A stretch of DNA of 63,809 bases from Reclinomonas americana ATCC 50394 (lineage: Eukaryota), in contig PS015503.1 in assembly GCA_048213135.1 (NCBI GenBank), positions 1 through 63,809 on the forward strand, written 5' to 3'. Below are positions 7,149 through 61,879 of the stretch, piece by piece. The position numbers were made by a program, and so were the translations under genes. The first letter of the stretch is position 1. Each line of letters opens with the position of its first letter. The notes under the pieces were generated by a model. That model saw only the letters and a list, made by a program, of their open reading frames with translations. It made no database searches and had not been told where the DNA came from.

Positions 7149-8110
7149 AGAGAGAGGAAACGAGAGAGGAAAAGGGAAAGAGAGCTGATTCTCGCACGCA
7201 CTGCCAGTGCTGGAATCTGTCGATCGATAATGTCACGCGTGGCGTCGGCGGCACTCACACCGGCCGGCACCGAGTGCGCACCGAGATACGTCACCGAAAC
7301 ATCGATGGGGTGCGACTTGGCCACGTCGTTGATGACCTGCAAAGGGGGGGATGAGCTGCAGCTCTTCACCCTCGCAGTTTCATGCAGGTTCGCAACTCGC
7401 AGCATCTTGGTCTCCGTTGACAACTCCAACCCATACCCCGACTTGGCCTCCACGAGAACCGTGCCGAACTGCAACATCCGATCGAATCGCTCACGCAGCA
7501 ACGCACCGAGTTCCTCCTCCGAGCTCGCCCGCGTGTGTCGCACCTGCACGTCCGTGAGCAACAAAAAAAACACAAAGCCACACTCGCTCCTTCCTCCCTC
7601 CCTCTCATCCAACGACGCAACCGTGAACCCAATGCCACCACCGGCCTTGTGCACCTCCATGTACGTCGCACCGGCAAGTTTCATGGCGAACTGCATTGCA
7701 TGCAGAGTCACTGACAAAGCCCACATCGACAACTCGCCCAACACACAACGAACCTCATGCACACGATCGCCACTCCAACACGGGTGCGTGTGGCCGTCGA
7801 CGAACCCCGGAACCACGCACATGCCACTGTCGCCATTGTCATAATCACCATGCAGACAAAGACACACACACACACTCCTTCCACTTACACACCGCGCATC
7901 GATTCGCCGCTCAAACACCGCATCAGCATACTGCTGAGCAATGTCGGCGGCCGCGCCCACCGCCGCCACTCGCCCACTCTGATCAATCACCACACTGGCA
8001 TTCTCCAACACCGCAACCTCGCGCATGGCCTCGGCGCACTTGAATCGCTCCCCGTGCGCACACACACGCACCACTTGCGCCGCATTCTCAATCAGCAATC
8101 GACACTGCAT
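7149..8110 (-). CDS. hutI: Imidazolonepropionase (HutI/AMDHD1); 3' part lies in a gap
   Basis: Motifs PGFVDGHTH, FAMKLAGATYMEVHKAGGGIGFT, GTVLVEAKSGYGL and TYLGAHSVP. ATG at 8110. Confidence 0.95.
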
Positions 8111-8213
8111 GACTGAACGCACAAAGGTAGCTCCGCGCAGACAACTCTGACCGACAAACCGATCGCTTTCACACGCACTACACCACAAAAGGGGAGAGCG
8201 TGACACTGAGAGT
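8111..8213. promoter_or_regulatory. Putative bidirectional promoter between hutI and hutU (103 bp)
   Basis: Divergent ATGs at 8110(-) and 8214(+). Confidence 0.6.
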
Positions 8214-11212
8214 ATGGCAGAGCCCTCACAGAAACGACGCAAGACAGGTGTGCGCGACGCATGATTCTGAGATTCTCTCACTCTCACTCTCTCACTCTCT
8301 GTCTCTCACAGGTGGCAACTCTGCGGCAGTGGTGACTGCGCGTGCCAATGGGCACGGCTTGTCGGCAGAAGTGTACGTGGACTTGTCGGTGTTGGCGCGC
8401 GGATTGCCGGTGGAGTTGCCTGGGCCAGCGGGTGCATTGGACCCGAGTGTGCCGCACGCACCGCGACGCACGCCTAACCTGACTGCACAGGAGCGAGTGG
8501 TGTGTGAGAGCGGAGAGAGCGGAGAGAGAGAGAGTGTTGTGACATCGTGTGATTCATCTCTTTTCGTGTCTTGCAGCTGGCGGTGCAGAATGCGTTGCGG
8601 TACTTCCCTCGCGATTGGCACTGCGTGCTGGCGCCGGAGTTTGCGGAAGAGCTGCATCTGTATGGTCATATCTATATGCACCGGTGAGTCGGTGTTCTTC
8701 CTGTTTCGCCTTGGCGACATTGCTCTGATTCTCGTGAGCAAGGTTCCGACCCACGGAGTATGCCATGAAGGCGTACCCGGTGGACATGTACCCGGCCAAG
8801 TGTGTGCAGGGTTCATAGTCCCGTTTTTGCCTCTCGTCGCTTCCATGTGGAAACACTGATGTCATCACAGCGGCTTGCATGATGCTGATGATTATGAACA
8901 ACCTGGATCCGCGCGTGGCGCAGTTCCCGCACGAGTTGATCACGTACGGCGGCAATGGCAGCGTGCTGCAGAACTGGTCGGTCTTGAAGGCTTGCACACG
9001 TGCCTTCTCCCTTCTCTCACTCGCTCGCGTGCACACGTGCAGGGCACAGTACCTGCTGGTCATGCAGTACCTGTCGGAGATGACCGACGAGCAGACTCTG
9101 GTCATGTACTCGGGTCACCCTCTCGGTCTGTTCCCCAGTCACAAGGAGTCACCGCGCGCTGTCATCACCAACGGCATGGTGGTGCCCAACTATTCCTCCA
9201 AGCAAGAGTTGCGCGACGTGGCTCTCGCATCGCTCTCATGCCTGCCTCTCACACTCCCTGCAGCTACGAGCGCATGTACGCTGTCGGGTGCTCCATGTAC
9301 GGGCAAATGACGGCCGGCAGCTACTGCTGTTGCGTTGTGTTGTGTGCTCACAAGTCTCCGTCGGCGTGTCGTGCACTCATCTCCACGGCAATCACCTCCT
9401 GCGCAACACAGACATCGGACCGCAGGGTTGCGTCCACATCTCCTCGACTTGCGTCGCACTGCGCGCTCATTATTCTTGCAGGAATCGTGCACGGAACAAC
9501 GCTGACTCTCCTCGGTGCATCGCGCAAGTACTTGCACACGGGCGACCTCTCGGGCACCATTTTTGTCACCTCTGGCCTCGGCGGCATGAGTGGCGCACAG
9601 GCCAAGGCCGCTGTGATTGCCGGTGCCGTGGGCGTGGTGGCCGAAGTGAGCGGTACGTGCACTATGGAGTCTTTGATAGATCCTGGCCATGCTAGTCTCT
9701 CACCCTATCCTGCACAGAGGCCGCGCTGCGAAAGCGCCACGAACAGGGTTGGGTGATGGAGGTGCAGACCGATCTCGACTCGTGCATTGCGCGCATGCGC
9801 GAGGCACGTGAGGCACGGCAGCCACTGAGCATTGGCTACCTGGTGCGTCATATCGCGACATCTCTCTTGTTCTTCACTGAACCTCACATGCACGCCAGGG
9901 TAACGTGGTCGACCTGTGGGAGCGTCTCGTACACGAGGAGGATCTGGAAGTTGCACTTGGTTCCGACCAGACCTCCTGCCACAACCCGTACGGCGGCGGC
10001 TACTATCCAGCGGGCCTGTCGTTCGAGGAGGCCAACGAAATGATGGTGCAGGATCCGCCGCGTTTCAAGTTGCGTCGAGACAGGAAAACCCACGAAACAG
10101 AAACACAGTCTTATCTGTCTGACATGTTGGCACGCGTGCAGGGAGTGTGTGCAGGCCAGTTTGCGTCGGCACATTGCCGCCATCAACTCGCTGACGACGG
10201 CGCGTGGCATGAAGTTCTGGGACTACGGCAATTCGTTTTTGCTCGAGTGCAGCCGTGCCGGAGCCGATGTGATGAGTGCCGACGGCACACACTTCCGCTA
10301 TCCCTCGTACGTCGAAGACATTATGGGCGACATTTTCAGTCTGGGCTTTGGTCCTTTCCGCTGTTGCGTTGCGCGAACGTGGCGTCGCGATAGAATGCCC
10401 ACTCATCGGTGATGCAGGGGTGTGCACGTCGGGTGATCCGGCTGATCTCGAGCTTACGGATCGGATTGCGGCCGAGATCACGGCCGAGAAGGCGACGGTG
10501 GCCGATGAGCTGTCCAAGCAGCAGGTTCATTCCCTTGTGATGATTGCCATGAGTTGCCCGTCGCTATTCTCATTTCCTTTGCAGTACGAGGACAACCACA
10601 AGTGGATTGTCCAGGCGGGAGCAAACAAGATGGTCGTCGGCAGCCAGGCTCGCATTCTGTACAGCAATGCCGAGGGTCGTGTGGCAATCGCCGAGGCGTT
10701 CAATCGCGCCATTGCGAGTGGCGAGATCTCCGGACCGATTGTGCTGTCGCGCGATCACCACGACGTGTCAGGGGCGGACTCACCGTGGCGAGAGACCGCC
10801 AATGTCAGCGACGGCTCACGCTTCTGCGCCGACATGGCCGTGCACACGTTTGTTGGCAACACGTTCCGTGGCGCGACATGGGCGGCACTGCACAATGGCG
10901 GTGGCACAGGTTGGGGCGAGGCGATCAACTGCGGGTTTGGATTGGTGCTGGACGGCTCCGCCGCGGCCGCCGCCCGTGCCCACAACATGCTGTGGTGGGA
11001 CGTGAACAATGGAGTTGCGTTGCTTTTGCTTTCTCGCCACGAGAGATGAGCTCACACGCTCGCAGTTGGCGCGCCGCGCATGGGCCGGTCATCCACTTGC
11101 GAGGTCGACGGTGCGAGAAAACATGCGCGTCGACCCGACACTTCGCATCACGGTGGCAGAGCTCGCCGACGACGATCTCGTGCAAGATGCCGTGTCGGCA
11201 GCATTCAAGTAA
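8214..11212 (+). CDS. hutU: Urocanate hydratase (eukaryotic long type), 15 exons
   Basis: Motifs NNLDPRVAQFPHELITYGGNG, YGQMTAGSYCYIGPQGIVHGT (rebuilt across a 15-nt micro-exon at 9412-9426), SGLGGMSGAQ, GSDQTSCHN, RDHHDVSGADSP and LHNGGGTGWG. Confidence 0.97.
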
Positions 11213-11326: not shown

Positions 11327-14300
11327 TCAAGTCTCGATAATCTGCAGCGCGACAGTCGGTTAGAAACACACGACTAGGGAAAAACTTCGCCAGCATCGCC
11401 CGCAACAAACCTCCTTCTCTCCCAAAAACTCCTCCACATAATATTCCTCCTCCACGTACTCTTCCTCCGCGTCGCTGTCGTAGCCCTGAATGGCTGTCCG
11501 GCGCTCTTTTTCCTCGGCGTATTGCCTCTCCCATTGGCGAATGAAATACTCCAACTCCTCACGCTGCCGTGCCCGCGACTCCATCTCCTCCCTTGAAATC
11601 GCACCGAGCTCCTCCAAGTCGGACTTTTCGTACCGTGCAATGTAGGACTGGATGTTGGAGCGCACACCCTGTGTAATAATAATCACACCATCGTCTGTAA
11701 GCAACCCATAATCACACTGCTGCTCGCTTCTTGCATCACAAACCTCTTCGACATCGGGTGGCAGCAGCGACTTGGGTCGTGGTCGCCACAAGAACTGCCA
11801 AAAGTGATCCTTCTTCTGCTGGTCGAGGAGGCCACCAAAGAACGTCCACAATGAGAAGCCGTTCTCCAGTTGTGTGAAGAAGTACGACGACAGTGTTGTT
11901 ACAAAGCGACCCGTTGGATCCCACTCCACCGACGTGCACATAAAGTGCTCGCCCTCGCCCATTCTGTGTGTCAAGAGAGAGTAGGAGTGGTCAGCGTGCG
12001 TCACAAGAGAGAGAAACGATGCCGAGTCACTCACGTGTGCTTCTCTGTGACATCGTAGAACTCCAAGTGGCCATTGAACGCACGCAGACCCGCCAACACA
12101 ATGAATCGACCGCGTGGTGACCAGAATAGTTGATTGCAGTTCCGCTCACGCAGCGTTACTAAACAGGGGGAGAAATGAGTTGGCGTCGGAACTGAAGTGC
12201 GAGAAACAACAACAAACCGAGTTTCCTGAGTTTCTTGGCGGCGCGGCCCACATCGTAGAACGACACATGCAGCGGCGGCTGTGAGCCCGTCGACTGCTTG
12301 ATGACATTGCCGTGCACCACTGCAAAGCGGCCGCCCGACGATGGTTCCCATGCAAAGGACGCGATGTCGCCCTCAATGTCGTCCACCACCTGCACTGGCA
12401 CGTCACGATCCTTCATGCGGAACAGCTCCAGATGCATCTCTGTCTTGGTCTTGGTCTTTTGCTGATCCACCACCGCACACAGATACCGTCCCTCGTCGTG
12501 CCAGTAGAATTGTACCTGATAGGAGCGTGGCAGTGAGCACACGAAGAATGGGATGTTTTTTCTCTGCCGACAGACAAACCGAGTTGACACCGAAAATGGT
12601 CTTTTGCCTTACTTCCTCCTTGCGTGGAATCGAGATGAGCGTGATGCGTGCTGGCTTTGGTCCTGCATGGGTTGCAGACGAATTCTCGCGTTAGGAAATG
12701 ATATCGACACCAGGCGAAAAAGAAAGCAGCAAACCTTCGTCGGGCACCCAGTACACCAACATATTGTCGCGTGTGGACCATGAAAAGTCGCGAATGTAAG
12801 GCACCAGAATACGCTTCTTGTCCAGCAGTTGTTGTGTTGAGCTCTCGTACACACTGGTGAGGGGAAAAAGAGAGAGAGAAAGAGGGCCTCGTCAGCATGT
12901 GCGCCCACACGAGACAAAAGACAAACGGTGGAGTACGCAACGCAATGGCACTCTCTTGGTCACTCTTGCGCTCAATACGCGCAAAGTACTTGTCGTCGGC
13001 ACTCCACTTGAAAATGGGCCATCCATCGCGTTCGAGAATGCCCTGGAACTCGCGCAGCTTGCGGCCCGTGCGAATGTCCCAAATCAGTGTGTTCTGCCCC
13101 AGGCACACGCACAGCAGTGAGTCACAGGAGCTGCAAACGTCATGCCACACAGTGCCACAAGAAAGAACAACATGGTGTGCGCTCAGGGAAGTCAAGTGTC
13201 TGTCACAGTCAAGCGACTAAGAGTTAATTCCGTTTTTCCTACATCACAGCGCGATTCTCCACTACCGTGTGCCACCCCCAAACCAACCAACCAACACACA
13301 CAACACGCACCTTGCCGTCGGGATTCATCTGCGGACCCCACGTCACGAGGAACTTGTCGTCGGGTGAGAAGTCGATGCGCTGGATACCGTTGTGCACAAA
13401 GCGGCGAATGAGGTGGAAATCGTGACCGCCCCACAATTGCACGCCCTTGGGGTGGAGTGTGGCCAGGTATTGGCCCGAGTGCGACCATTGTGCCACCGAC
13501 TCGGTCCATCGCTGTTGATAAGAGCACAGTGAGCACATGAAGGGCGAGACGGTGCACATAAGATTTGCTGCAAAACACACACACACACACCTCACGCGAG
13601 TGCTCCAGACGCGACTGCTGTGTGGGATCGTGCCAGTACACCTCGTTGCGACTGCCGTAGCGGATCAGGTACTGATCACGACCGCGCTCGTCCAGCAGCC
13701 AGTCCATCAGGTTTTCCTGCAATCGCAAGCAATCGTCAGCACAAACACAATCTCTCTTCTTGCTGTTGAGGAGGGTGTGCCGCAACTGGCTCCTTGAAAG
13801 GCTCCGGCTTGAACTCTCCATACTCGGGATTCATGCTCATGACGCGCTCGTAGTCGGAGAGCAGGATCGCCGAGAGAGTGTGTGACTTGTCAAAGAGCAG
13901 GTTATTCAACGCCTTGACGCCCTCCTCCGCCGCCTCCTCCGACGAGAACTCGATGAAAGCCAGGCCCTTGGTGCGCTCGCTATCGGGCGTGAACGGCATG
14001 CGGATTCTGTCAATCGGCACCTCCTCCACTCGCGATGCGTGCTTTGCCACGACCTTTCGCAGTCTGTCGTACTTGCTGCGATCGACCTCGGGCAGGTGAT
14101 CGACGAGCACCACATTGCCAAGTGACTGTGTCCACGTGAAGGGCAATGAGCCAAAAACAATGACCATGAATGCGGGCAAAGGGAGTGCATAAGTACCTCG
14201 TCCAACACCACGTCCTCCTCATCCTCCGGGTACTCCTGTTATGCGTCGCACGCAGACAAGTGAGTGTGAGTGTTGTGTGCACATTGCCGGACATGTCTTC

Positions 14301-20648: not shown

Positions 20649-21967
20649 ATGAGTGCCTCTGGGGCTGCTGGAGGAGGAGGAGGAGGAGGCAGCAGTGGGA
20701 CACCACGATCCGCCTTCGCAGCTCCCGTGGGCGTGGTCGGGTGGCTGGCGATCAATGTCGCCAGTGTGGTCGCTCTTGTCTTGCTCAACAAGCAGGTCTT
20801 CCTGTCGGGATTCACCCTTGGTCAGTGTGTGTGAGAGAGAGAGAGTGCGTCTCTTCCCTCTCCCTCTCTCGCTCTCTCTCACACACACACACACACTTGC
20901 ACAGTGACGACATTGACATGTTTGCACTCGATTGTTGGAATGCTTCTCCTCGCCGTGTGCTATCTATGTGGAGGCTTTCCATTAAGCAGCATTGTATGTG
21001 CCTCTGCGAGCCTCTGCCTCTTGTCTCTCTCTCTTTTACACAAGCTCATGCACAGCGATGGCAAACGGTGCTGACAATGGCGATTGTGCAATCGAGCTCG
21101 ATTCTCCTCGGCAACCTCAGCCTCGGGTACAACTCAGTCTCTTTTTACCAGGTCACACATTCTCGCACCACACATCAGTGCACTTTACATAACTCACCAC
21201 GAGTCGTAGATTGTCAAGGTTCTCGTCACGCCGTGTATTGTTCTCTGCGAGTACATGTGGCTCGGGAAGCGCTACTCTCGCGAGACACTCTTCTCGCTCG
21301 TGGTGCTGTGCACGGGCGGCTTTGTGGCGGCCGCCAGTGACGTGGAGATCAACTTGGTGGGCACGCTGGTTGCGCTGGCCGGGCTGGCGGTCACCTCGTT
21401 TGGCTGGGTGGTTCGCTATCATCGTCCTCCTCCAGCTTGCGCTTCTCGTGCTCACTCGGTTGCTCGCAGTCGCTGACCGAGATGCAGCGCTCGTTGACGT
21501 GTCACCCGCTGCAGTCGTTGTGGTACATATCCTCTGCCATGTCGCTGGTGATGGCCATTGAGGTGCCGCTGGTCGACAATGTGGCCGCGCTTGCCTCGGT
21601 GAACGTGTCGTGGCCGCTGGCAGTTGCGTGCCCCGCACTCGCTGCGACGACTGTGGCCTCGCTTCGCGTGACACGTGCGCTCTTGCAGGCTGCCATTTTC
21701 GGCTCGTGCCTACTGGCCTTTGTCGTCAACATGTCGGCGTTTGTGGCGTCGAATGTCACCGGCGCACTGACCATGTCGGTGATTGGCTACCTGAAGACCG
21801 CCTGCATCATGATGTGCGGCCTGGTGTTCTTTGGCGAGCAAACCTCCCCAAAACACATGACGGGAATGATCATCACTCTCGTCGGCCTCGCCTGGTACAC
21901 CTACGCCCGCTCGCGATCAACTGACAGCGTCGTAAAACACGACGACAAGGCCGAAAAGGTCGAATAG
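20649..21967 (+). CDS. TPT/SLC35E-family nucleotide-sugar transporter (UXT/URGT/SLC35E3-like)
   Basis: NVASVVALVLLNK, LGNLSLGYNSVSFYQ|IVKVLVTP, LAFVVNMSAF...TGALTMSVIGYLKT. Confidence 0.88.
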
Positions 21968-29110: not shown

Positions 29111-30926
29111 TTAGTCCGGTGGTCGCGGGTGTGGGCTTGGTGGGTACACGAACGCGGCGTCGAGGTCCTCCACGATGCCGAGTCGAGATCGCGGACGTCT
29201 GTTAACAAAGAGTGAGACAAGCTGCGATCAGCCGCATGTATACAATGTGCGATCGCAACTCGGGTTCCGGTGGCCGACTCGGCTCAACCTCCGGCAGGCC
29301 ACTGGCACGCCGGGCAGCTCGCTGCTTGGCATGCTCCTGTTCCACGAGTAGCATCGACTCGGCGGCCTCGTAGTCGAGACCGGCAGCAAACTCCTCCTTT
29401 AGCGCCGACAGACTCTCCGCACGATCAAAGAGAAACTGCGACACTGAGTCAGGCCTCTCTCCCTCCATTCCTCTCCCGCTCTCTCTGCTTCGATGGATCG
29501 TACCTGCGAGGTGAGCAAGCCGTACGAGTCGTGCGCCACATCGTAGTCCGCCACGGCATCAGTGTGTCTGCCCATCAGCGCATACAGCGATCCACGTGTG
29601 TGGAACACCTCGCCGTGCGGAACCACCGTCAGGTGATCGAACAGCGCCCCGTCGTACAGATCGAGCAGCGCATTCAGTGTGCCAAGGCACTTGTCCAGCT
29701 GTTGCACTTTGAGGTAGACCAGTGCCAACAGGTACACCGTGTTGCCGGCGTCGATCCACTCGGCCTTGGAGAGAGTCAGCGGTGCGCCTTCGACGCGCGC
29801 ACGCTGCTGTGCAATCGAGACGGGATAGGAGGGAGCGCGTTGCGGTCGAGGTGGCGACGGCGACGGTTGCTCCTGCGGATCCAGCTCACGAAATCTAGCA
29901 TCCTCACGGCTGAAGATTTGCGGTGGCGATCCGGGTCGTTGCGCCCCAGTCGGGAGCGTCACATACGTCTGCCACGGCACGTATTCAGGGACAACAACAC
30001 GACAAGAAGAAGACATCAACACAGCCCTACAGACCGGCAGATTCGGCGACGCTGGTTGCTTCTGCGCGGGAGCGAGGCCAGAGCGTTGGGGCGAGCCGGG
30101 AGACGTGGGCGACGGTGCCTTCTCCTCCAGCATGTGCGGCGGCACATACGGCTCCCGATCGTCCGAGATGAACTCCAGCAAGTACGTGTTGAGATCGTCA
30201 ATGGCCAGCGCAAACTCTTGTCGCTGGAGGCGAAAGATGGCGCGCTGGTTGCACCACCCATTGAGTACGCGCACGCGCAGAGAGATCAAGTGACACGCGA
30301 GCGAACCTGTCGCCACACTTCTCGTCGTTCCGGGTGCAACAACACAGCGCAATCAAAGTCCATGGCCGCTCGTTGACTGTCTCCCTACGCCGCGGAGCTC
30401 ACTCAGTGAGTGAGCGTGACCCTTCTGCAAGTGCAGTAGGTCTCTCACCAATCGCTCCAACGCACAACCGCGGGTCAGCAGCGCATGCACATTGTCTTCT
30501 TCCGACTCCAGGGCCTTGGAGGCCGATCCCACTGCCCGTTCGTGCTGGCCTGCGTACGCACAGAGAGAAGGAGGAAGAGTGCAAAGAGAGAGAGAAGAGA
30601 GCGAGAGCGCAATCAATGACCAATGATCGTCCGATGCTGCATCCACTCCCTCCCTCTTTCTCTCACACACACCCATGCGATGAAACACAATGGCGCGGTT
30701 GGTGAGGGCGGAGACATCACTGGGGTTGCGCTGCAGGTGCTCGTTGTAGAAGCGGAGAGAGATCTCCAGCTGACCCTGCCGTAACGCTGATGGTGTTCCC
30801 GGGTGTGCGAGAGAAAGGTGTGAGTGGTGAGAAGAGGCATGCTGTCTGTCAGTGCATGTGCGTACCATTGTCGGCCAGTCGTACCTCCATCGGTGCGACT
30901 CTTTCTGGTGATGCGATGTCATGCAT
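29111..30926 (-). CDS. TPR-repeat protein
   Basis: ALTNRAIVFHRMG, ALLTRGCALERL, FHTRGSLYALMGRHTDAVADY. Confidence 0.75.
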
Positions 30927-44179: not shown

Positions 44180-44523
44180 TTACGTACTGGTGGTGGTGGT
44201 GGTGGTCGGAGGAGGAGATGATGATGCTTGTTTTCGCTCCGGAGACTCCTCCAGCGCCTTTTGCGCCATGGCGCGAATGCCAGACAGTGTGTTGGGTGGC
44301 CTCTCACCCTCCGCGGGGTACACCACGTACTCGCGCTGTGTGCATGTGTGCGTCGTGTGAGTGACTCAGAGAGAGAATGATGCATCAGAGATGCGAATGG
44401 CGCAACATTAAGAAGGACGCCTTCCAGCACCTCCGGGTGAGTGATCACCACAAACGAGGCCACTGGCAGTGTCAGGTAGGTGGCGAACTTGAAGACCTCG
44501 AGGAAACCGCGGCGACCAGTCAT
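44180..44523 (-). CDS. PET100: Cytochrome c oxidase assembly factor PET100
   Basis: GFLEVFKFATYLTLPV...N|REYVVYPAEGERPP. Confidence 0.82.
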
Positions 44524-44606: not shown

Positions 44607-45364
44607 ATGAGGTGCTTAGTGCTGCTGCTGCTGGCACTAGTGGCCTTGTCAAGTGTGGCGCACGCATTCCCCGCAGGGAGCACGCCACAATGCACAGAGC
44701 TGCAGACGTATCAGTTGCGCACACACACTCTCTCTCTCTCTTCACACTCCTCTCTCTTACACACGCGCGAGTGCAGGTTCACATGCGATACACCGTCGCC
44801 GTGCGAGCCCAACAACCTCAGCACACGTTGCGTCTGCACATGCGCACTCGTTCCCACACACACGCGCTCATTGCAATCAAGCAGAGACATGCACGGTGCG
44901 ACAGGGCGTCACGTGCACCGGAAGCACCACCTTTACACGCAGTCGAGCATGTGCCTATACGTTGCGTGTGCGCGCATGCTCACTTGCTTGTCTTCAAGCT
45001 CTCTCACCCCTCCAAACAGGAGTGGTGTTAAGTTTAGCACGGCGGTGGCGCTGTCGTCCATCTTTGGCGGTCTCGGCTTTGATCGCTGCTACATGGGATA
45101 CCCGTTCTTGGGCGTGGCCAAGTTTCTGACTGTTGGTGGAGCACTGGCGTGGGGCTGGCTCGATTTTGTGTTAATCTCCACGCAGGTGACTGTCAAAACT
45201 CTCGTTTGTTTTTGCGTGTTGTCAGTCGTTGATTGACACGCACACGCGTGTGGCAGGCGATTGGACCGGCGGATGGCACAGCGTGGGATGTGGGACCTGG
45301 AGGCCAGCGGTTCTACTCGCTAGGCGGTGATCCGACGCCACCAGATGGCATGGTGTGGAACTGA
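44607..45364 (+). CDS. TM2-domain protein (TM2D-like)
   Basis: Signal peptide, Cys-rich ectodomain, LSSIFGGLGFDRCYMG...GVAKFLTVGG...LDFVLI...GPADG. Confidence 0.88.
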
Positions 45365-48400: not shown

Positions 48401-50004
48401 AATGGTGAAATGTACTTGGAGCCATTGGCGCTGCCGTTGGTGGAGGACAGATCGGCGGCGGCGGCGGCGGAGGCGGAGGCATTCACCGACAGTCCCGTGG
48501 GCGGCACCGTGGTCATCTCGCCCGTCACCGCCGACCACTGCTGCGAGCGTTGCAGCTGCGAGAACTGATTGCGCAGCTCCTGCTGCTGTCGCTGCAAGAG
48601 CAGCTGCTCCGCCAGGAACTGCTGCTCACGTGACATGCCGCTCTCGGCGGGAGCGTTGGCGGGTGACGACAGTGGCGGCGCCTTGGGCGCGGGCCGAGAG
48701 GGTCGCCCACCGGGACGACTGACGGGCGACGACAGCGACGACTGTCGTTCGCGCTCAGCCTGCTGCGTGGTGAGCAACAGAGCTGCAAGGAGGGCCGAGA
48801 GCACACACACACACACCTGTCGAGCAACTTCGTTCTGATGCTGCTGCAACTGCTGGCGAATGAGATCATTCTGCTGCGTCTGCACCTCCTCCATCTTGTG
48901 GAATTGCTGTTCGAGCGACAGCGACGGCGCTTGGCGACTCGGAGGCGGCGATGGACCGCGGCTTGGCAGGTTTGGCACCGGACGCGGCGCAACGTATGTC
49001 GTGGCTGCGCGATATGCGTCAGCCGGCAAGAGAAAACGAACCCACATGATGAGTGCGAATAACGCAACGAGACATGGCGTAGCGCGCAAGCATCTCGGCG
49101 GCCGACAAGCCACCGGCGGGTGAGGAGCGCTGCGGCGAGTCGGGACGCGTCGATGACATGGCTCCCACCGGTGTGCCGACGGGCTTGATGGACAGCGCCG
49201 ACGGCGGCTGTCCGTACAGAATCGAGGCCGGTGTGGCTTGCGATGCGGGCTCGTCGGACAGATACCGGGCCGGCTGCGGTGGCGCGCCCGACACCACCGG
49301 TGGATGCGAGGTGGCATTGATCACCGAGTTGGGTCGGCTTTCCAGAGGCGAGATGAGAGTGAGGAGGAGATGGAGATGGAGAGAGGGAGAGAGGAGGAGT
49401 ACCTGTCGGTGGTGACACCGGCCACTGGCGTTGAAATGAGCGCAGAGGGATCGGTCTGCGGCGGCGGTGAAGCACCGGGCTCACGCGGTCCGCGCATCAG
49501 CGTCAGCTGCGTGCTGTCATTCAACTCAAAGTCCTTGCCGGTCCAGTGATCGTGCAACTCACGCCCGTTGATCAGCAGCGTCTGGGTGATCGAGTGAGCA
49601 AGAGAGAAGGGAGAGATAAGGATGTGTGTGTATGTGTATGTGGTGAAGAAACCTGTTCCTCTGCTGGCACACCGGTGACCTTTTGCAGGTTCTTCTTGAT
49701 CTTATCGACGCGGAGTCGTTGCAGATCGCTGCGCGTGTTCACCAACGTGAGACACATTTTGTCGTTCCACCGCGCACACACACACAGAGATAGAGAGAAG
49801 AAGAGAGGGAGAGGGGAGGAGAGAGCGCGCACACACAATAAGAGTGGCGACGCAACGCTTTCTTCAGCACCACTCGATATCGCTTGTTATCGCTGGTCGA
49901 GAAGACGCTGAACGAGATTTTCTCCTGTGTGCGCGTGAGTGAGTGACTGTGCAAATGCGAGCGAGGGAGAGAGAGAATGAGAGAAAAGGCACCTCCTCGG
50001 CCAT
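45418..50004 (-). CDS. Kinesin-14 (C-terminal motor) with an N-terminal ubiquitin-like domain, Pro-rich linker and coiled coil
   Basis: Neck RKSLHNTLEDLKGTIRVVVRMRP, AYGQTGSGKT, SSRSH, VDLAGSER, HIPYRNSKLT. Confidence 0.9.
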
Positions 50005-50259: not shown

Positions 50260-50523
50260 TCAGTAGTCGTAAAAGCCGCCGACTTGCGCGACAAACACAT
50301 CAATCACATCGCCATCCTCCAGACCGGCCTCCTGTGCCGTTTGCGCATCCTCCAGGCGCCTGGTGAGCACGACGAGAGAGAGAGTGAGAGACAAGCTGCT
50401 TCGTTTGTTTTCGTTTTGCTTACTCCGCGCAACTCTCCGTCAAAGGCAAAGCGCAGACGTGAGATGTCAATGTCTTGCCTCTTGGCGTAGGCGTTGAAGA
50501 GCTTCTTCAGTGGTGTCGATTTC
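50260..50523 (-). CDS. SUMO: SUMO-family ubiquitin-like protein (3' exons; 5' part in or beyond a gap)
   Basis: KSTPLKKLFNAYAKRQ...LRFAFDGE|RL..AQT...GLEDGDVIDVFVAQVGG-FYDY*. Confidence 0.85.
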
Positions 50524-51891: not shown

Positions 51892-53018
51892 TTACAAGCC
51901 GGACGTCAGTTTCGCGCTCGCACTGCACGCGGCGGGAAGTGGCGGGTCCAGGCGTTGGCAGACCACCGTCAAAAGGTCGTTCTGTGCCTGCAGCTGCAGC
52001 GATTCGGTGTGCACGCCGTTCACAGTCAACCATGGCTGGCAACAGGAGAGAGTGTGAGCAGTAAAAAACACGCACGGACGATTTAGTCCAGCAGCGAATA
52101 TATTGCAACGCAACCACATATCGCAGCGGAGGATTGAGGGCACCCGTGCGCACCGCCATCTCGTGCACCAAAAGCGGAGCCTACAGTTGCTGTTGAGAGG
52201 GAGAACGCGCAAGGAATAAAAAAGCCCATCGTATTCCTTTTTCCGCACCTGTGAGCCCTGATAACATAGTTGCAGTGTGGCCCACGACAGACCGAGCTGG
52301 GTGGCGCACACCTGACCGGCCTGCGCAGCGATGAGAAAGCATGCGACGACAGCAACAAGCCACACACACGCGCTCACTTGGATGGGATTATCGGCGGCCT
52401 CCAAGCAAAACGTGTACTCGATCGCCACGGCCGTACTCGTCATGTTGAATGCGCACGCCTGCAACGCTTGAGCGTCGCACTCGTCGAACCCATGCGGGCA
52501 TGTGTAATACCACGTTCTGCGCGTGTGTTGATCACCAGTGTGAGAAGGCAGTGAAACACAAAGAGATCGGAAGTGCATGCGAAACTTGCCCATTGGCGAT
52601 TCGGTGGTATTTCCTGCGCCCGACAATCAGCACACAGACACACTCATAACACACACACACACCGCGCACACGCACTCACCATACGGCACCAGCTCCAGGT
52701 TCAAGCGCGCACTCATGCCGTCGCCGTGCCACACATCACTCAGCACACCACTAATGAACTGTGCACAAGAGAGTGAGGACAGAGACGCATGCACACACAC
52801 AGAGAGACGGAGCACGCAACTGCTTGACTGTACGGGCATCTCGCGGCAAAGTACTGCGTGTGTCACACACATGAGTGTCTTTCAACATTGTGTTTCCCCG
52901 CTCTTCGCCCTTGACTCACCACTCCCACGTCCACAGTCTTCACACCGTGCGCAACCGTGGAGGCCACGAGCACCGCAGCCGCGAGAACGAGCACGAGTGC
53001 GACGGCGCGCCCACCCAT
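51892..53018 (-). CDS. GILT/IFI30-family lysosomal thiol reductase
   Basis: Signal peptide, YFAARCPYSQ (CxxS), LELVPYG, TCPHGFDECDA..LQAC, YV|PWLTVNG. Confidence 0.9.
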
Positions 53019-53073: not shown

Positions 53074-55118
53074 ATGCGCGCGGCCGCAATCATCGTCTTG
53101 GCTCTGTGCGTTCTGTTCGCCGCGTGGTCGGTGCTCCCCGCGGAGGCCGGCATTGCGTCCGGTGGTGCAGTTGCGTGCCTCTCTTCCCCCTTTGTTTTTG
53201 CGTCATCTGCCATTTCCCTCTTGCACGCCTCTCTCGTCGTTGTCTCTCTTTGCTCACTCACTCGCTTGCGTGCAGGTGGTAAAGTTGACAAACAGCAACT
53301 TCAAGGAAAAGGTGTATGACTCGGATCAAGTGTGGATGGTTGGTTTGCATCGACTGTGTTTCGCGCTCCTTTGCACCGCACATTCGTGTTCTCACGCGCG
53401 CCTCTCTCTCTCTCTTCTCCACTTGTGCGTCCATCTCCCGCTCAGGTGGCATTTGTGGCGCCGTGGTGCGGTGAGTGTGTGTATATATGAAGAATGCGGC
53501 ACGCGCGCAGTTGTCGTCACGTGCTGCTTGTGCCACGTGTTAGCCTCGTCATCCAATTTGCTCTTCACTTTTGTTCACCATGCGTCGTGCACAGGTCACT
53601 GCCAGCGATTGGCGCCCGAGTGGGCCAAGGCCGCGGAGAGCATGAAGGGTATTGTGCTGTTTGGCGCCGTCAATTGCGACGAGGAGAAGGATCTGGCGTC
53701 CAAGTACGGCATTCAGGGCTTCCCCACGATCAAGGTGTTCGGCCCCGGCAAGAAGTCGGGCCCGTCGTCGGCCTCCAGCTACGAGGGCGCTCGCTCGGCT
53801 AACGCCATTGCGAACCATGCGGCCAGCCTGCTGCCCAACTTTGTCAAGCGTCTGAAGAAGTCCGAGGAGGCACAAGCGGTGCGTGCAATCCCCTTCGTCC
53901 CCTTTCATCTCCCTTCCTCATTCTCTCTCTCTCACACACTCCATCACTCCTGTTGCACAGTTCTTTGTAAGCGAGAAGCCCAAGGCCGTGCTGTTCACCA
54001 ACAAGACCACCACGCCGCTGCTGTTCAAGAGCCTGGCTCACGACTTCAAGAAGGTGATGGACTTTGCGGAGATTCGCGAGTCGGAGAAGGATCTGGTGAG
54101 CAAGTACGCTGGCGAGGGTGCCACGCTGCCGCTGGTCAAGGTGTTTGCCGAGTCGATCCCGATCGACCAGGAAGGTGTGAATGAGCAACCTTTCTCTTTC
54201 TCTCTCTCTCTTGTCTTCTTCCACCCTCCTCTCTCTCTCTCTCTTATCTTCTTCCACTCTCACTCACTCCTCGCTCTGGTCCTCGCAGCCATCACCACCG
54301 GCACTGCCTACGAGGGCAAGATCGACAAGATCAAGCTGGGCCTGTGGCTTGCCGGCTTTGTCAACGTCAACAACAACGCCGAGGATGTGGCGGAGAGTGT
54401 CGGCGAGAAGAAGATGAAGATCAAGAAGGTGGTACGTTTCATGGACCATGTGCTTGCGGGTTGCTTGTTGGTTTGTGCTCTGTCCTCATTGATGTGTACG
54501 TACAGGCCGTGGAGCCGGACTATGCCGTGCTGCACACTATTGAGGAGCTGCGCGAGACCGCCAACAGGTCGGCACAGCACAACCGCGTGGTCGCCATTTT
54601 CATTGTGCCCGAGGCTGGTGTGTTGTCTCCTCCACCCCCTGCCTCTTATTTGCTCTTCTCACGGTGCCTCGCAGCTGGCCGCGCCCATGTGCGCGACGTG
54701 GCTGAGGCGTACCACAACGATCCGATCGCCTTTGTCGCCACCGTGGCCGACTCCCCTATGGCCGAGGTCTGGAACCCCGTTGCCGGTGCTCCCAAGGTCG
54801 GTGCCGACAAGGCGCGCTTGCTCTTGGTCAAGCCCAAGAAGGGTCGCGTTGCCTTTGTGACCGACATTGAGCCGACCGACGACGACGAGGAGGGCTTCCA
54901 GTTCAGCATGACAGCCGTGAAGGTCAGCAGTTGTGTGTTATCTTGTTTGAAATGTACACCTCTCTCACCCCGATGTCCTGTCGCAGACGGCACTGGATCG
55001 CGTGGTGGGCGGCGACCTGCAGTTCAGGGGTCTCCCCATCTCGGAGGATGGTCGGGATTGGATCGATGTGCTGATCCACCCCAAGGGCAGCAGCGATCTG
55101 CGCTCTGACGAGTTGTAA
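53074..55118 (+). CDS. Protein disulfide-isomerase (PDIA6/MPD1-like, one active thioredoxin domain)
   Basis: Signal peptide, VAFVAPWCG|HCQRLAPEW, YGIQGFPTIK, C-terminal SDEL* retention signal. Confidence 0.92.
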
Positions 55119-55313: not shown

Positions 55314-57467
55314 TTACGATCGGACGCGAGACGCGATGGCGTTCGCTTGTCGATTTGGCAGCACCAACGCCGCCGCCACCTGTCGCTTCTGCGGCTGTCC
55401 CTGTGCCGATGTCGGCCGCCGACCCGAAGCCGATCCAGTCCGATAGCCGCGAGCGCTGAGATCGGCTCCCTCGCCATCGGAACCCGACGGCGACCATTCC
55501 GAGTCGCCAATCGAATCCGCGGCAGCAGCCGCAGTCGGCAGCGTTGGCAACCTTGGTCGGCTGCCAATGTGCAGATCCTCGAGTGTCATTGGCGGTGCCG
55601 GTGGCGGGCCGGCCAGCACCGGTGGGGTCGGAGGCGAGTTGTCGCTGTCGCGCAGCTTGCCCAGGAATCGCCGACCAAAGCGCATCTTGAGGACGGCATC
55701 TCGAGCCACCTCCCCAAACGTGGTCTTGCCCTGCGAGTCGCCCACGCTGGCCGACAACTTGCCCATGACGCCACTGACGAGGCCACGCAAGTTGCCGCCA
55801 GAGGTCTTGCTGCCTGCAGCTGTCGACGACACCAGCTTTTCCGTCGATGCCACCATGGCACTAAACGGATCGGCAGGGTTGCTGCTCGGCGCCTGCGGCT
55901 GTCGCACTGACGTGCCTGGGGTTCGTCGAGGCGACGAATTGGCGCTGGCCGCCAAGCGTGGCGCCGACACGGGTCGGGTGGCTGTTGTCGGCGGTCTGTC
56001 GTTGACATTCAACACGTTTCTGAGGAGCACGATGTGTGAGCCTTGCTAGTTTGACGAGTAAGTAAGGGAAAAGGCAATGGAGATGTGCACGCACCCGTCC
56101 TTCTCATGCTGCCGCTTCTGGCGAATGGCATGCTCGCGAGCGTGCATGCGGTCGTGCAAAAAGGCGCTCCGATCGTAGAAGATCTCTGTGCGCTTGTCCT
56201 TGACGCGCTGCGAGCGACGCTGATAGGCCGAGTACAGCACGTCGCACGTCGGGTGCGAGGCATGCAGTGTCTCCTCGGCAAACTTCAGGTAGTCCTCCAT
56301 GTTGCACGTGTCGGTCCACAAGTCGACCAGCTCGTAGGACGCGTCGAAAAACATCGGCCATGAGATGGCGGTCTGACCACGGCAGTCGTTCTCCCACTCA
56401 TCCTCCAGCAGCTTGCGCAGTTTCCTCTCCGACAGGTCGCAGTCGAGCGCCAGCATGATCTTCTGGAAGAAACCAATGTACTCATCGTGCGAGATGATGC
56501 CGTCAAAATTGCGGTCGCACACGCTCCACCACTTGAGCAGCGCCTCCTTCATGCGCGGATCACGGCGATTCTGTTCGCGCTTCTTGAAGTTCTCCGCATC
56601 GTACATCTCCATGTTGACCTGCAGAGAGGGAGAGAGAGAGAGAGAGGTGAGCAGCTATACAGGAAAAAATAACCGACATGAGATCGGAACTTGCCTGTCG
56701 TGTGTACGACTCGTACGACATGGTTCCCGTCGGCACATCCACCAACGCTCCCGCGTCCACACGCTGCTGCAACGCAGCAGCTTCGCGTTCGGCGCGCACC
56801 TCAATGTCAGGCCGCACCATGTGACACGCCTGCAAGGCGCCACGGACGCGCGACCACACCGCCTTGGCCGTCTCGCGCACCTCCACGCCGTGCGAGGTGC
56901 CCGCCATCTGCAGAATCGTCTCCTGCGTCTGCTGCCGCGCGAGTACCGGCGGCGACGCATTCCTCGTGCCCACACTCGGCGTGCGGCTCAGCGGCGCCGG
57001 CTTGCTCAGCAGCGCCGGCTGTGACGGTTGCCGCCGCGGCGAGCGTCGCGACGGAGATCCGCCCGCCGACGGTGGCGGCGCCGGGACCACCGTCCCCACG
57101 CGTCCCACCAGCATCATGCCGTCGGCAAGCGACGCCGAGGCGGTCGGGGGCGGTTGCGGCGACGTCGTGCGCGAGCCGGGTGCCGAGATGGACATTGGGG
57201 TTGCGCGGTTGCCTGACACGCCACTCTGACGCTGCGCGCTCCGCGGGCGTGCTGGTGACTGCGACGATCCGCACGTGACCACTCGTCGCGGGGCGGCGGC
57301 CGCGGTTGTTGTTGACGACGAATTACCAGTACCGTTCAATCGTGCCGAGGAAATCGTCATTAGCGATGGTGCTGGTGCCGTCTGCGAGAGAAACAAGAGG
57401 AGAAGGAGAAAAGTCAGTAATGAAAGCGCGCGATTGATTACACGGGGAGGGGCGCAACTCGTTGCAT
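55314..57467 (-). CDS. EF-hand protein, paralogue A
   Basis: DRNFDGIISHDEY EF-hand; FFDASYELVDLWTD; first exon MQR. Confidence 0.8.
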
Positions 57468-57622: not shown

Positions 57623-59492
57623 ATGCAGCAGCGCCCAGTTGCGTGAAATCTCCTCCCCACTCATCTACCTAGCACATGTAGAACAGCGCGCGTGTATGTG
57701 TTTGTGCGTGAAAGAACTGATGCGTTTGGTGGTGATGAGAGCCAGTTTGTTACAATGTCCGAGCTCATTGATGTGTTCCTCACTCTTCTCCCTTCTCAAA
57801 CAGCGCCCGCCGCTGTCGAGCGGCCTCATGCGTGGTCACTCGCCGCCTCCTGTGCACTCGTCGGCATCGTCGCCACCACAAGCACCCGTGGCGCAGTCGC
57901 TGAGTCGACCTGGCTCCTCTGCAGCGACTCGAGGTCGCACACCACTGCCTGCGCCTGCGCCCTCCATGGAGACCGCGAGCAGTCTGATGCAGGTGCGTGG
58001 CTCGTCGCGGCCCGGCACTGCAGCTGGAGCAGCACCAGTGGGAGGAGGACGAGATGAGCCGCCAAGTGTGACTCCTCCAGGCTCGAGGTGAGTGCGTGCG
58101 AGAGAGAGAGCGCGAGAGAGTGAGCATCTGTGTTGAGTGTGGCGGCTGATGTGCGTCGCAGGCACGGCACACGACGACGCTCGGACATTGACGATGTATC
58201 ATCGCAGTTGCGTTGGTGCATAGCTTCTCTTTGCGTCTCCGTGTTGTGTATTGACCGCCTTTGTAGTGCGGCGGTGGAGCGCGGTCGGTCGCCGATGCTC
58301 GCGGCAGCAATGCAGGCGCGCGGTTCGATGCCGCTCACGGCGTTCAACAGCAGTGCGGTGCCGCTGAGTGCGCTGCAGGCGCTGGTTCGGCAGGTGACCG
58401 AGTCGGGGTTGCCGACGTCGGATGCGCTGCGGCAGGAGAACCGCACACGTGCACGCTCCATGTGGACGAGGGTGCGAGCGGGTGTGCAAGTGGCGCACTT
58501 CACCAAGGATCACCTCGTTGGTGAACGAGCACGGCACGAGCTGGACGATGTGGCGAGGAAGATACAAGCTGGTGAACTCACCGACGTCATGTCGACCAAC
58601 AGGTGAGTGTGTTGGAACCCCCGGGTACTGCGCTGCGGTATGTCTGTGTGTTTTCCTTAAGCAATATGGGTGTGCGCAGAACATATGCGGATTATGTGCG
58701 CGAGGTTAATGTTGACATGTATGCCACGCCGGCGTACAATCAGCGTGAGCACAACCGGTCCAACGAGGACCTGCGGCAAGTCATTCTGCGCTGGTGGAGT
58801 GTGTGTGATCGGTGAGTCCGCAGCAGTGAGCAAAGAGTGGTCGCTACGCTCGCTGTTTAAGCTCACTCCCCTGCTCAGCAACTACGACGGTGTCATCACC
58901 AAGGACGAGTATGTCAAGTTTTTCACAAGAGTCATGGAGGTCCTCGACTGCGACCTCAGTGCGCGCCAGCTACGAGCGCTAATGGACGAGGAATGGCAGC
59001 ACGATTCCAAGGGCAACGAGGCCGTCACTTGGCCGCTCTTCTTCGACGCCAGCTTTGAGCTCATCGATTGTTTCGTGGGAGGAGCCCCATCTTGTATGTC
59101 TTGTTCTGTGCTGATTGGTGTCGCTCACCGTGTGCCTGCTTGACAGTGTGGACGGATTCTTCGGAGGCGCAAGATTATGTGACATTTGCCACCGACGTCA
59201 TCCGTCAGGCGTTCCCCTCCTACGAAACCATTTTCGCCGGCTACCAGCGGCGTGCACAGCGCGTAAAGGAGAAGCGCACTGTCATTTTTCACGACCGCGC
59301 CGAGTTCCTGCGGGAACGCATGCAGGCCCGTGATGCCGCCATTCGCCAGCGCATGCAAAAGCTCAAGGACAGCGAGCAGTACGCGATTGCGAAAGTACGT
59401 ACGGGATCAAGGAGCATCAGCACGCCACCGCCTCTGACCCGACCGCTGAGCGCCGCCGCTGGCGTCTCCCGCATGCCGGCCATTACGCCGTT
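57623..59492 (+). CDS. EF-hand protein, paralogue B; 3' end lies in a gap
   Basis: DRNYDGVITKDEY; FFDASFELID-VWTD; first exon MQQRP. Confidence 0.8.
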
Positions 59493-60385
59493 NNNNNNNN
59501 NNNNNNNNNNNNNNNNNNNNNNNNNNNNNNNNNNNNNNNNNNNNNNNNNNNNNNNNNNNNNNNNNNNNNNNNNNNNNNNNNNNNNNNNNNNNNNNNNNNN
59601 NNNNNNNNNNNNNNNNNNNNNNNNNNNNNNNNNNNNNNNNNNNNNNNNNNNNNNNNNNNNNNNNNNNNNNNNNNNNNNNNNNNNNNNNNNNNNNNNNNNN
59701 NNNNNNNNNNNNNNNNNNNNNNNNNNNNNNNNNNNNNNNNNNNNNNNNNNNNNNNNNNNNNNNNNNNNNNNNNNNNNNNNNNNNNNNNNNNNNNNNNNNN
59801 NNNNNNNNNNNNNNNNNNNNNNNNNNNNNNNNNNNNNNNNNNNNNNNNNNNNNNNNNNNNNNNNNNNNNNNNNNNNNNNNNNNNNNNNNNNNNNNNNNNN
59901 NNNNNNNNNNNNNNNNNNNNNNNNNNNNNNNNNNNNNNNNNNNNNNNNNNNNNNNNNNNNNNNNNNNNNNNNNNNNNNNNNNNNNNNNNNNNNNNNNNNN
60001 NNNNNNNNNNNNNNNNNNNNNNNNNNNNNNNNNNNNNNNNNNNNNNNNNNNNNNNNNNNNNNNNNNNNNNNNNNNNNNNNNNNNNNNNNNNNNNNNNNNN
60101 NNNNNNNNNNNNNNNNNNNNNNNNNNNNNNNNNNNNNNNNNNNNNNNNNNNNNNNNNNNNNNNNNNNNNNNNNNNNNNNNNNNNNNNNNNNNNNNNNNNN
60201 NNNNNNNNNNNNNNNNNNNNNNNNNNNNNNNNNNNNNNNNNNNNNNNNNNNNNNNNNNNNNNNNNNNNNNNNNNNNNNNNNNNNNNNNNNNNNNNNNNNN
60301 NNNNNNNNNNNNNNNNNNNNNCGTGCAGCGAGCAGGCTTTCCATCCCCCCCTTGTATTTTTTCTCATTCATCTTACCCCCTACAG

Positions 60386-61879
60386 CAACTACGCGCCCTG
60401 CATCTACCCGCAGAAGCTGGCGCAGATGGACGGCCTCGACCAGGTGCTGTGGTTGTACGACTACGACCACAAGATCACCGAAGTCGGCACGATGAATCTG
60501 TTCTTCTTCATCATCAACGAGGCCGGTGCGTTTTCTTGGAGGGTTGCTTCTCTTGCCCTTCTCTATTGCTGTGGTTTGGAGTTTGTGTAGCCGTGTCTCA
60601 CGCGTTTCCCTCCTCCTGCGCGCAGGTGAGCGTGAGTTGGTGACCGCCCCGCTGGATGACATCATCCTGCCCGGAGTCACTCGCGACACGGTACTAAGGC
60701 TGTGCCGCCAGTGGAACGAGTTCAAGGTGACAGAGCGCTACCTGAACATGGGCGAGCTGATTGACCTGCACTCGAAGGGCCGAGTTGCGTGATGAATGCA
60801 GGCCGCTGCCTCTCTTTCTTGTTTCCTCTGACATGTCTGTTTTGTCGCCGCCTCAGGTTCTCGAGTCCTTTGGCGCTGGCACGGCGGCCATTATCGCTCC
60901 AGTCGAGGGTGTCAAGTTCGAGGACAAGGTGCGTGAGAGAGAGAGAGGAGGGACAGAGTGTCGAAAAGGGCGGATGCTCTCCTGTGTCCCTATTCTCTTT
61001 CCTCCAATCTTTTCGTGTATTCCCATTCCGTATCTCTCAACTCTTCCTCTCTCCTCCACATTTGTCTCTCTCTTCCTCCGTTGCCCTTTCCTCATTTCTC
61101 TCCCTTTCGCCACCTCAGCTCTTCCTCTCATTTATTCTTTTTCCCTTCCTCCATTCTTCCCTTTTCCTTCCTCTCATGCTGCCGCTTTAACTCTGCCACT
61201 TGTCCTGTGTCTCTTTTGCATTTCTTCCATTTTCTACCCATTCTTTGGACCTGTTCCTTTTCCCTTTCCGTCCTCCTCTCCCTTTCCCGTCCTCGTTTCC
61301 CTTTCCCATTCTCCTATCTTTTCCCTGTCCTCCTCTCCCTTTCCCCGTCCTCCTCTCCCTCTCTTGCCGTCTTCTCCCTTTCCCCACCCTCCATTCCCTT
61401 TCCCATCCTCCTATCTTTTCCCTGTCCTCCTCTCCCTCTCTTGCCCTCTTCTCCCTTTCCCCACCCTCCATTCCCTTTCCCATCCTCCTTTCCCTTTCCC
61501 GCCCTCCTCCCTCTCCCGTCCTCCTCTCCCTCTCTTGCCCTCCGTCCCCTTCCCTTTCTCCTTCCTCTTCCCCCTCCTCTCCTTCCCCTTCCCGTCCTTC
61601 CCCTTCTCGGCCTTCCCCTTTCCCGCCCTCCTCTCCCCTCGCTCACCCTTCCCCTTTCGCCCCCCTTCACCTCGCAGTACATGCAGTTCCCGCTGGACCC
61701 CGAGAACCCGAAGGCCGGAGCTGGCCCGCTGGCTAAGCGTCTGACCAAGACCATTCTCGACATTCAGGTGCGACACCCTTTTCCTCCCGTGTGAGTTTCC
61801 CATCTTGCATCTCCCTCACGCCGTCACTATTGTGCAGTACGGCCGCACGCCGAGCGAGTGGTCCGTCCTGATCAACTAA
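60386..61879 (+). CDS. BCAT: Branched-chain amino acid aminotransferase (3' half)
   Basis: [54 protein letters not shown]. Confidence 0.95.
61020..61670 (+). repeat. Polypyrimidine tract with degenerate tandem units in a BCAT intron
   Basis: Almost entirely C/T; ctccctttccccaccctccattccctttcccatcctcct recurs with a spacing of about 80 nt. Confidence 0.85.

Follow-up and report, generated by a model that had tools for sequence, protein, structure and literature searches.

Introns that begin with GTTGCG form an abundant second class of 5' splice sites (donors) in the stretch of Reclinomonas americana ATCC 50394 DNA that we analyzed, a single window of 63,809 bases (contig PS015503.1) with about 43 verified introns in total. 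Between 11 and 12 of these introns, about a quarter, carry the hexamer. Their last exonic base is rarely G, whereas almost every other verified donor follows an exonic G, and their base composition is that of ordinary donors displaced by one position, on the exon side as well as on the intron side. The explanation that we favor, with a probability of roughly one half, is that these are ordinary major (U2-type) GT-AG introns in which the 5' signal and the cut are offset from each other by one base. An initial annotation of this DNA had listed 28 such introns and had described their anticorrelation with G at exonic position -1. The observation of GTTGCG donors is real and is confirmed here; the mode in which they are read is discussed below with the appropriate reservations.

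Intron junctions were mapped from the DNA alone, by homology, by profile coordinates and by coding potential. A profile-to-DNA spliced aligner was used with fetched homologues, either under GT/GC-AG rules or, in a control run, with no rule for the terminal dinucleotides; the profile for urocanase (hutU) comprised 10 homologues. For imidazolonepropionase (hutI), the branched-chain aminotransferase (BCAT) and a SYF2-like gene, the coordinates of single exons on TIGR01224, PRK13357 and Pfam profiles were used. A coding-potential parser combined codon statistics with GT...AG termini. It was run without any donor information, in one version with a bonus for the acceptor and branch, and also with a donor model built from intron positions only. 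Parser counts are rough: of the 22 introns that had been verified when it was assessed, it recovered about 15. Its errors included reading through the BCAT intron into a stop codon and dropping conserved hutU residues. Two further approaches gave little: a ranking of all 84 GTTGCG sites by local coding score was too blunt to classify them, and the unconstrained alignment of eIF3b was uninformative, its conservation being low.

The strongest evidence comes from hutU, in which the rule-constrained alignment placed 13 introns, six of them GTTGCG. The initial annotation had counted six of 14; the six stand at identical positions. When the dinucleotide rule was lifted, five of the six GTTGCG boundaries fell at the identical base, and the one at 11014 was displaced by 4 bases, with only a marginal gain. 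For the intron at 9329, sliding both ends by one base was considered and rejected because an invariant tyrosine would be lost. The other seven hutU donors (GTGTGT, GTGAGT, GTCGGT, GTACGT, GTGCGT and GTTCAT twice) all follow an exonic G. Nine introns were found in eIF3b, two of them GTTGCG, and six of the remaining seven donors have G at -1. The seventh, GTGAGT after C at 12034 (minus strand), is the sole homology-verified ordinary donor without an exonic G; a strong intron side usually compensates in such a case. In the villin/gelsolin gene, one of 13 robust GT-AG introns is GTTGCG and follows T, and the 12 others all follow G; four GC-AG 'introns' placed by the aligner in unconserved linkers of this gene are artefacts and were removed before counting. 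All five robust introns of the C-terminal-motor kinesin gene are preceded by an exonic G.

Profile coordinates extend the verified set to hutI and BCAT. The exons that flank the BCAT intron match PRK13357 at 248-293 (residues 4-50 of 52) and 297-319 (residues 2-24). In hutI, one GTTGCG intron joins exons that abut on TIGR01224, and a second is likely; the fragment upstream of this second intron matches the profile in two stretches. Thus, 11 GTTGCG introns are firm and one is likely: they have GT...AG termini, and their removal restores a conserved reading frame.

All 28 positions listed by the initial annotation do carry GTTGCG on the strand given. By support, the 28 divide into the 11 firm and one likely sites backed by homology (in hutU, eIF3b, villin, hutI and BCAT), five sites recovered by the parser alone, and 11 candidates with neither kind of support, several of which have weak coding flanks. 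In the raw contexts, a CTCAY or CTGAY branch-like motif and a YAG lie 50-230 bases downstream of nearly all 28. The parser adds 12 GTTGCG donors beyond that list. Searches of profiles with single exons gave no match for the exons of the GILT-like and PDI-like genes or for the upstream exons of the SYF2-like and sugar-transporter genes.

The motif is also abundant by measures that need little or no gene structure. GTTGCG occurs 84 times on both strands of the window, compared with 59.2±8.3 in 100 shuffles, one of which reached at least 84. For the heptamer GTTGCGT the count is 38, the shuffles gave 13.8±3.4, and none of the 100 attained 38; no gene model enters into this comparison. When the parser was run without a donor model, GTTGCG was the top donor hexamer, with 9 of 109 donors in one parse and 16 of 155 in another. 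As a separate and weak observation, GTTGCG is scarcer on the sense strand (6) than on the antisense strand (16) of the predicted exons, which span 30.3 kb.

The negative association with exonic G that had been claimed from the sequence holds in the verified introns: one of 11 GTTGCG donors follows G, but 30 of the 31 others do (Fisher p=8e-8), and adding the likely hutI intron at 7621, which follows G, leaves the picture unchanged. The parser gave the same result, both when it required only GT at the donor (2 of 16 versus 82 of 139, p=4e-4) and with the intron-only donor model (3 of 28 versus 71 of 101, p=2e-8). Among the 28 listed sites, the last exon base is something other than G in 25, as had been stated; the three with G are 9427, 7621 and 52114.

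The nature of this association became apparent when 37 GTTGCG donors, 12 of them homology-verified, were compared with 89 ordinary donors. Ordinary donors have A (47%) or C (27%) at -2 and G (76%) at -1, followed on the intron side by G (37%) or T (35%) at +3, C (38%) or T (31%) at +4, G (75%) at +5 and T (60%) at +6. GTTGCG donors have G (38%) or C (30%) at -2, A (49%), T (24%), C (16%) or G (11%) at -1, and T (68%) at +7. Position -1 of the GTTGCG donors resembles position -2 of the ordinary ones (chi-square p=0.37) and is unlike their -1 (p=4e-12). In the same way, -2 resembles ordinary -3 (p=0.69) and not ordinary -2 (p=0.0045), and +7 resembles ordinary +6 (p=0.45) and not ordinary +7 (p=0.0017). 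The A at -1 is found in 18 of 37 GTTGCG donors (binomial p=0.004) and G in four. As counted from the contexts, the verified subsets agree, with A at -1 in 6 of 12 GTTGCG donors and A at -2 in 15 of 31 ordinary donors.

With the cut written as a slash, the ordinary donor is therefore (A/C)AG / GT(G/T)(C/T)GT and the second class is (G/C)A / GTTGCGT. MAG/GTGCGT and SA/GTTGCGT are the same nine-base word, in which the ordinary +1 G has become T and the cut lies one base upstream. The roles on the exon side have moved accordingly in the composition statistics: -1 stands in place of -2, and the +1 G in place of the -1 G. That a shift on the exon side accompanies the one on the intron side appears, from these compositions, to be new.

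Beyond the donor, the two classes look alike. Median length is 73 bases for GTTGCG introns and 75 for ordinary introns. Both have CTCAC, CTCAT or CTGAC branch-like motifs at a similar distance from the 3' end (17.5 versus 18 bases), and both end in CAG. Two features of the introns of this window in general are worth recording. Nearly all have a branch-like CTCAY or CTGAY, in which the base ahead of the branch A, a purine in most eukaryotes, is C or G, and this motif lies about 17-18 bases from a 3' splice site that is almost always CAG.

How a cut at GU could be combined with a signal that is one base displaced is most simply described in terms of U1, a small nuclear RNA (snRNA). The 5' end of U1 would pair one position shifted at GTTGCG sites, so that the +1 G of the intron would occupy the slot usual for the exonic -1 G, and the exonic -1 A the slot usual for -2 A, with one mismatch opposite the +2 U. 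Later steps (U5, U6 and Prp8) would then pick the sole available GU as the cut site. Pairing of the U6 ACAGA box with +5 to +7 would need one looped-out uridine, at +2 or +3. Both the RNA that reads the motif and its mode of reading are what we infer from the donors themselves. To compute pairing we took from PMC4856993 the standard U1 5' end, which may differ from the U1 of this organism. Out of 11 positions, GTTGCG donors form on average 4.43 pairs in the normal register, 6.38 in the shifted register and 6.49 in a bulged one; for ordinary donors in the normal register the figure is 6.76. What leads us to favor the shifted register is that the preferences on the exon side and on the intron side are displaced jointly, by one base. 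Shifted pairing of U1 is experimentally proven for rare human sites, according to the accessible text of PMC4856993.

The initial annotation had offered a +1-shifted register, a bulged register or a variant U1/U6 side by side, and this interpretation is supported in part. The first gains from the exon-side shift and from the rise in pairs over the normal register, and the second loses by the rarity of G at -1. Its further suggestion, that the class compensates for missing contacts of the -1 G, needs to be reworded, as in the shifted reading the first G of the intron would itself fill the slot of the -1 G.

Several points weigh against a shifted U1 register. Pair counts do not separate it from a bulge; the exon-side composition alone does so, at 37 sites. 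The class is almost solely GTTGCG. Shifted forms of other common donors, such as GTTTTGT, GTTTCGT and GTTGAGT, would be expected to be common, and a single GTTTCGT was seen; their near absence implies extra stringency or a dedicated reader. The C at +5 faces a uridine of the standard U1, and better shifted sites than GTTGCG are possible. The U6 ACAGA box would, in the normal register, pair with none of positions +4 to +6, which is hard to square with a quarter of the introns, and U6 would therefore have to tolerate a looped-out uridine or dispense with this helix. The comparison of branch motifs is partly circular because the parser rewarded the motif in both classes, and the motif can also be seen in the plain sequence around the 28 sites. 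Finally, the junctions, the register and the parts given to U1, U5 and U6 are all deduced from genomic sequence. The near-monomorphic class and the mismatch at +5 together mean that a U1 variant or another dedicated reader still has to be considered, as does a non-standard 5' end of the U1 of this organism.

A dedicated reader, which we consider unlikely, would be a U1 variant, such as one in which the base facing the +2 U is altered, or else a different small RNA, or a protein, with specificity for GUUGCGU, and it would imply two parallel particles for 5' splice-site recognition serving one spliceosome. The extreme uniformity of the class, in which even +7 is T in 68% of sites, would be well explained in this way, as ordinary donors are loose; so would the scarcity of shifted versions of other common donors just described. 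Expressed variant U1 genes are known in humans, as far as the available parts of PMC3561869 and PMC10870369 describe them. What speaks for a single reader is that the exon-side preferences of the GTTGCG donors equal those of ordinary donors after a shift of one base, an equality most simply explained by one and the same reader.

Slightly more improbable is a bulged register, in which +1 G and +2 U would be paired as usual, an extra U at +3 (or +2) would be looped out, and GCGT would pair like +3 to +6 of GTGCGT. Its pair count equals that of the shifted register, pairing with U6 would also fit, and the bulge +2/+3 register has been validated at a few human sites and predicted at 68 (PMC4856993, in the part available). 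However, C9 of U1 would remain opposite exonic -1, where G would be expected. It is this prediction that disfavors the bulge, for G is depleted there (4 of 37; 1 of 11 in the verified introns) and A is enriched (18 of 37). The composition at -2 also looks shifted, which a bulge would not lead one to expect.

We doubt that the class is a relic of mass intron gain, by which a mobile 'introner' brought its own donor and landed at sites without an exonic G; the common motif would in that case reflect descent more than mechanism. Insertion at sites other than AG/G would be explained, and the possible clustering by gene (six of 13 introns in hutU, one of 13 in villin; raw counts with no significance test) would fit. 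However, GTTGCG introns have no mutual similarity past +7: pairwise local scores among 28 of them average 7.04 and peak at 12.5, and 60 of the 105 ordinary introns give values at least as high (mean 7.41, maximum 20). In addition, on our reading of the contexts, A at -1 persists at third codon positions, in a coding sequence that is rich in G+C. In decayed introner copies the motif would persist only if functional, so a mechanism of recognition would still be required.

It is very improbable that the class derives from the minor (U12-type) spliceosome, transformed and expanded as in Physarum. A long and rigid intron-side motif without a preference for exonic G is indeed typical of U12-type introns, and the minor class of Physarum reaches tens of thousands of introns (10.1101/2020.10.12.336362, in the text accessible to us). 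However, GTTGCG is unlike RTATCCTT, whereas the expanded class of Physarum is described in the same text as retaining GTATCYTT and a branch motif of its own. The branch-like motif of the GTTGCG introns, its distance from the 3' end, the 3' end itself and the intron length are the same as in ordinary introns. RTATCCTY occurs three times in the window against 1.3 expected, which is no enrichment, and none of the three is at a mapped donor. Separately, we note a perfect ATATCCTT at 24554-24561 (minus strand), exactly where a predicted exon begins in the TBC-domain gene; it may be there by chance, or it is possibly a U12-type donor.

That the sites are not donors at all, or that the junctions are misplaced by one base, is hardly credible: 11 of the 28 sites do have neither homology nor parser support, and the parser is imperfect, but homology fixes 11-12 sites, the heptamer is enriched nearly threefold without a gene model, and such an artefact is excluded for the verified dozen. 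An origin of the class by sliding of introns with ordinary donors was discarded on logical grounds, as the 3' end would have been unable to follow.

The coordinates of the GTTGCG introns and candidate sites are collected in Table 1.

Table 1. GTTGCG introns and candidate GTTGCG donor sites in the window, with one hutU micro-exon. Introns are given from end to end and candidate sites as the hexamer; on the minus strand the donor lies at the higher coordinate.
Feature	Coordinates	Strand	Exonic -1 base	Support and remarks
hutU intron, GTTGCG	9208..9263	+	A	Phase 2; spliced profile alignment, with and without dinucleotide rule
hutU intron, GTTGCG	9329..9411	+	T	Split codon is the invariant Y of CYIGPQG; both alignment modes
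hutU 15-base micro-exon	9412..9426	+		GTTGCG introns on both sides; encodes part of invariant IGPQG; both alignment modes
hutU intron, GTTGCG	9427..9481	+	G	One of few with G; both alignment modes
hutU intron, GTTGCG	10069..10141	+	A	Both alignment modes
hutU intron, GTTGCG	10363..10417	+	T	Removal restores invariant GPFRW; both alignment modes
hutU intron, GTTGCG	11014..11065	+	A	Rule-constrained alignment; boundary 4 bases off when unconstrained
eIF3b intron, GTTGCG	13717..13786	-	A	Spliced profile alignment
eIF3b intron, GTTGCG	12854..12941	-	C	Spliced profile alignment
Villin/gelsolin intron, GTTGCG	32409..32482	-	T	Spliced profile alignment
hutI intron, GTTGCG	7337..7396	-	A	Exons 7397-7543 and 7151-7336 abut at TIGR01224 130/131
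hutI intron, GTTGCG, likely	7544..7621	-	G	First residue of downstream exon is TIGR01224 position 82
BCAT intron, GTTGCG	60784..60856	+	A	Flanking exons abut at PRK13357 ~295/296
SYF2-like intron, GTTGCG	35014..35086	-	C	Parser only; downstream exon is Pfam SYF2 112-154
PDI-like intron, GTTGCG	53170..53275	+	A	Parser only
Coiled-coil gene intron, GTTGCG	42666..42760	+	T	Parser only, acceptor uncertain
Small-gene intron, GTTGCG	44336..44406	-	T	Parser only
Kinesin-gene N-terminal intron, GTTGCG	49729..49856	-	C	Parser only
Candidate GTTGCG donor, sugar-transporter-like gene	21623..21628	+		Splicing undecided: candidate intron of 66 bases keeps the frame and is open
Candidate GTTGCG site	43507..43512	+		Weak coding flanks
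Candidate GTTGCG site	43931..43936	+		Motif and context
Candidate GTTGCG site	44714..44719	+		Motif and context
Candidate GTTGCG site	44961..44966	+		Motif and context
Candidate GTTGCG site	57638..57643	+		Motif and context
Candidate GTTGCG site	29254..29259	-		Moderate coding support
Candidate GTTGCG site	50428..50433	-		Motif and context
Candidate GTTGCG site, GILT-like gene	52109..52114	-	G	Flanks right by eye, no profile match
Candidate GTTGCG site, GILT-like gene	52815..52820	-		Motif and context; no profile match
Candidate GTTGCG site	57453..57458	-		Motif and context

The window consists of nuclear DNA from a eukaryote, has a G+C content of about 55% and is gene-dense, with genes split by short introns. 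Recognizable genes are hutU, hutI, eIF3b, villin/gelsolin, the SYF2-like gene, the C-terminal-motor kinesin, the PDI-like gene and BCAT; identity to the closest database relatives is 76-78% for hutU, 53% for eIF3b and 52% for villin. The sequence is broken by ten runs of N with a total of 4,567 bases (3786-4163, 6556-7148, 14761-15332, 16241-16676, 22985-23004, 35240-35735, 39030-39263, 41553-42043, 50793-51310 and 59493-60321), and runs inside hutI, a WD-repeat gene, the SYF2-like gene and BCAT limit the models of these genes. A search of the window with Rfam returned no families and no snRNAs, and a metagenome scan for relatives of the eIF3b exon gave 359 pattern matches, none of which was a relative.

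A further GTTGCG donor, suggested by the parser, is possible at 46224 in the kinesin gene, where the segment 46152-46346 (minus strand) lies in a variable loop of the motor and allows three intron solutions; the aligner favored a 44-base intron or a GC-AG intron instead. The genes hutI (minus strand) and hutU (plus strand), at 6539-11212, stand head to head with starts a few hundred bases apart, and thus form in a eukaryote a divergent pair that encodes consecutive enzymes of histidine breakdown. Another divergent pair, at 55144-57360 (minus strand) and 58310-59400 (plus strand), encodes clearly related proteins that have in common a stretch with the motif WWSVCDRN..DG.I..DEY; they resemble a head-to-head pair of paralogues, to which no function was assigned.

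On the most far-reaching reading, about a quarter of the introns of this lineage would be defined by a helix one nucleotide off the scissile bond, formed by U1 and necessarily by the U6 ACAGA box, or they would be read by a second U1-like RNA; we offer this broader statement as a tentative one, less likely to be right than wrong. Were it true, the reading of the signal would be separated, naturally and genome-wide, from the decision where to cut, and the exonic AG preference would be imposed by an early reader rather than by U5. A mainstream shifted class would be a natural experiment on the long-standing problem of the passage from recognition of the 5' splice site to the choice of the exact phosphate, and it would also bear on which preferences stem from U1, U5 or U6. 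In practice, gene-finding programs that were trained with ordinary donors will miss or misplace about one in four introns here.

Parts of this pattern are already known. These are the inverse relation of exonic G to the strength of the intron side, and the shifted and bulged registers of U1 as rare human exceptions. Neither GTTGCG nor GTTGCGT was found as a splicing signal in the full-text literature; logos in figures, supplements and subscription papers were outside that search, so the motif may be in print for this lineage. On a shifted U1 register across species, the same literature yielded the human work and a passing remark on tunicates. Within the same limits, we found no published case of a rigid class, offset by one base, that makes up about a quarter of the introns of a genome and has its exon preference displaced as well.

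Among known systems, the U12-type introns, including the Physarum set, are similar in having a rigid and long intron-side motif and no exonic consensus and, in Physarum, in their high abundance (10.1101/2020.10.12.336362, as far as its available text goes). They differ in that the motif of the GTTGCG class is unrelated to RTATCCTT, has no separate branch motif beside it, and belongs to introns with the 3' end and length of the bulk.

A closer parallel is provided by the two main 5' splice-site classes, AG//GU and //GURAG (left- and right-handed), described in the accessible parts of PMC9803359, PMC11732430 and PMC11842720. There, too, an exonic -1 G is negatively linked to the strength of the intron side. 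However, as these texts present them, both classes use one common register with G at +5, whereas the present class has T+3, G+4, C+5 and G+6 and an exon preference that is displaced rather than weakened. GTTGCG donors also lack the features that define //GURAG, namely R+3, A+4 and G+5, read by the U6 ACAGA box in the normal register. The bulge +2/+3 sites (Roca et al. 2012; Tan et al. 2016) are similar in having one extra uridine after GU and an equal number of U1 pairs; they predict a retained -1 G, which is depleted here.

The closest match is to the human shifted-register sites (Roca and Krainer 2009, as described in the part of Tan et al. 2016, PMC4856993, available to us). Like these, the GTTGCG donors are GU-initiated and U2-type, have U at +3 and have the consensus G displaced to +6; their computed complementarity to U1 is low unless the register is moved by one position, and the cut is at GU. 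The differences lie in scale and in sequence. As described there, the human sites are rare exceptions with A-rich cores, whereas in this window a rigid, G+C-rich GTTGCGT marks about a quarter of the introns, with a population-wide, visible shift of the exon-side preference.

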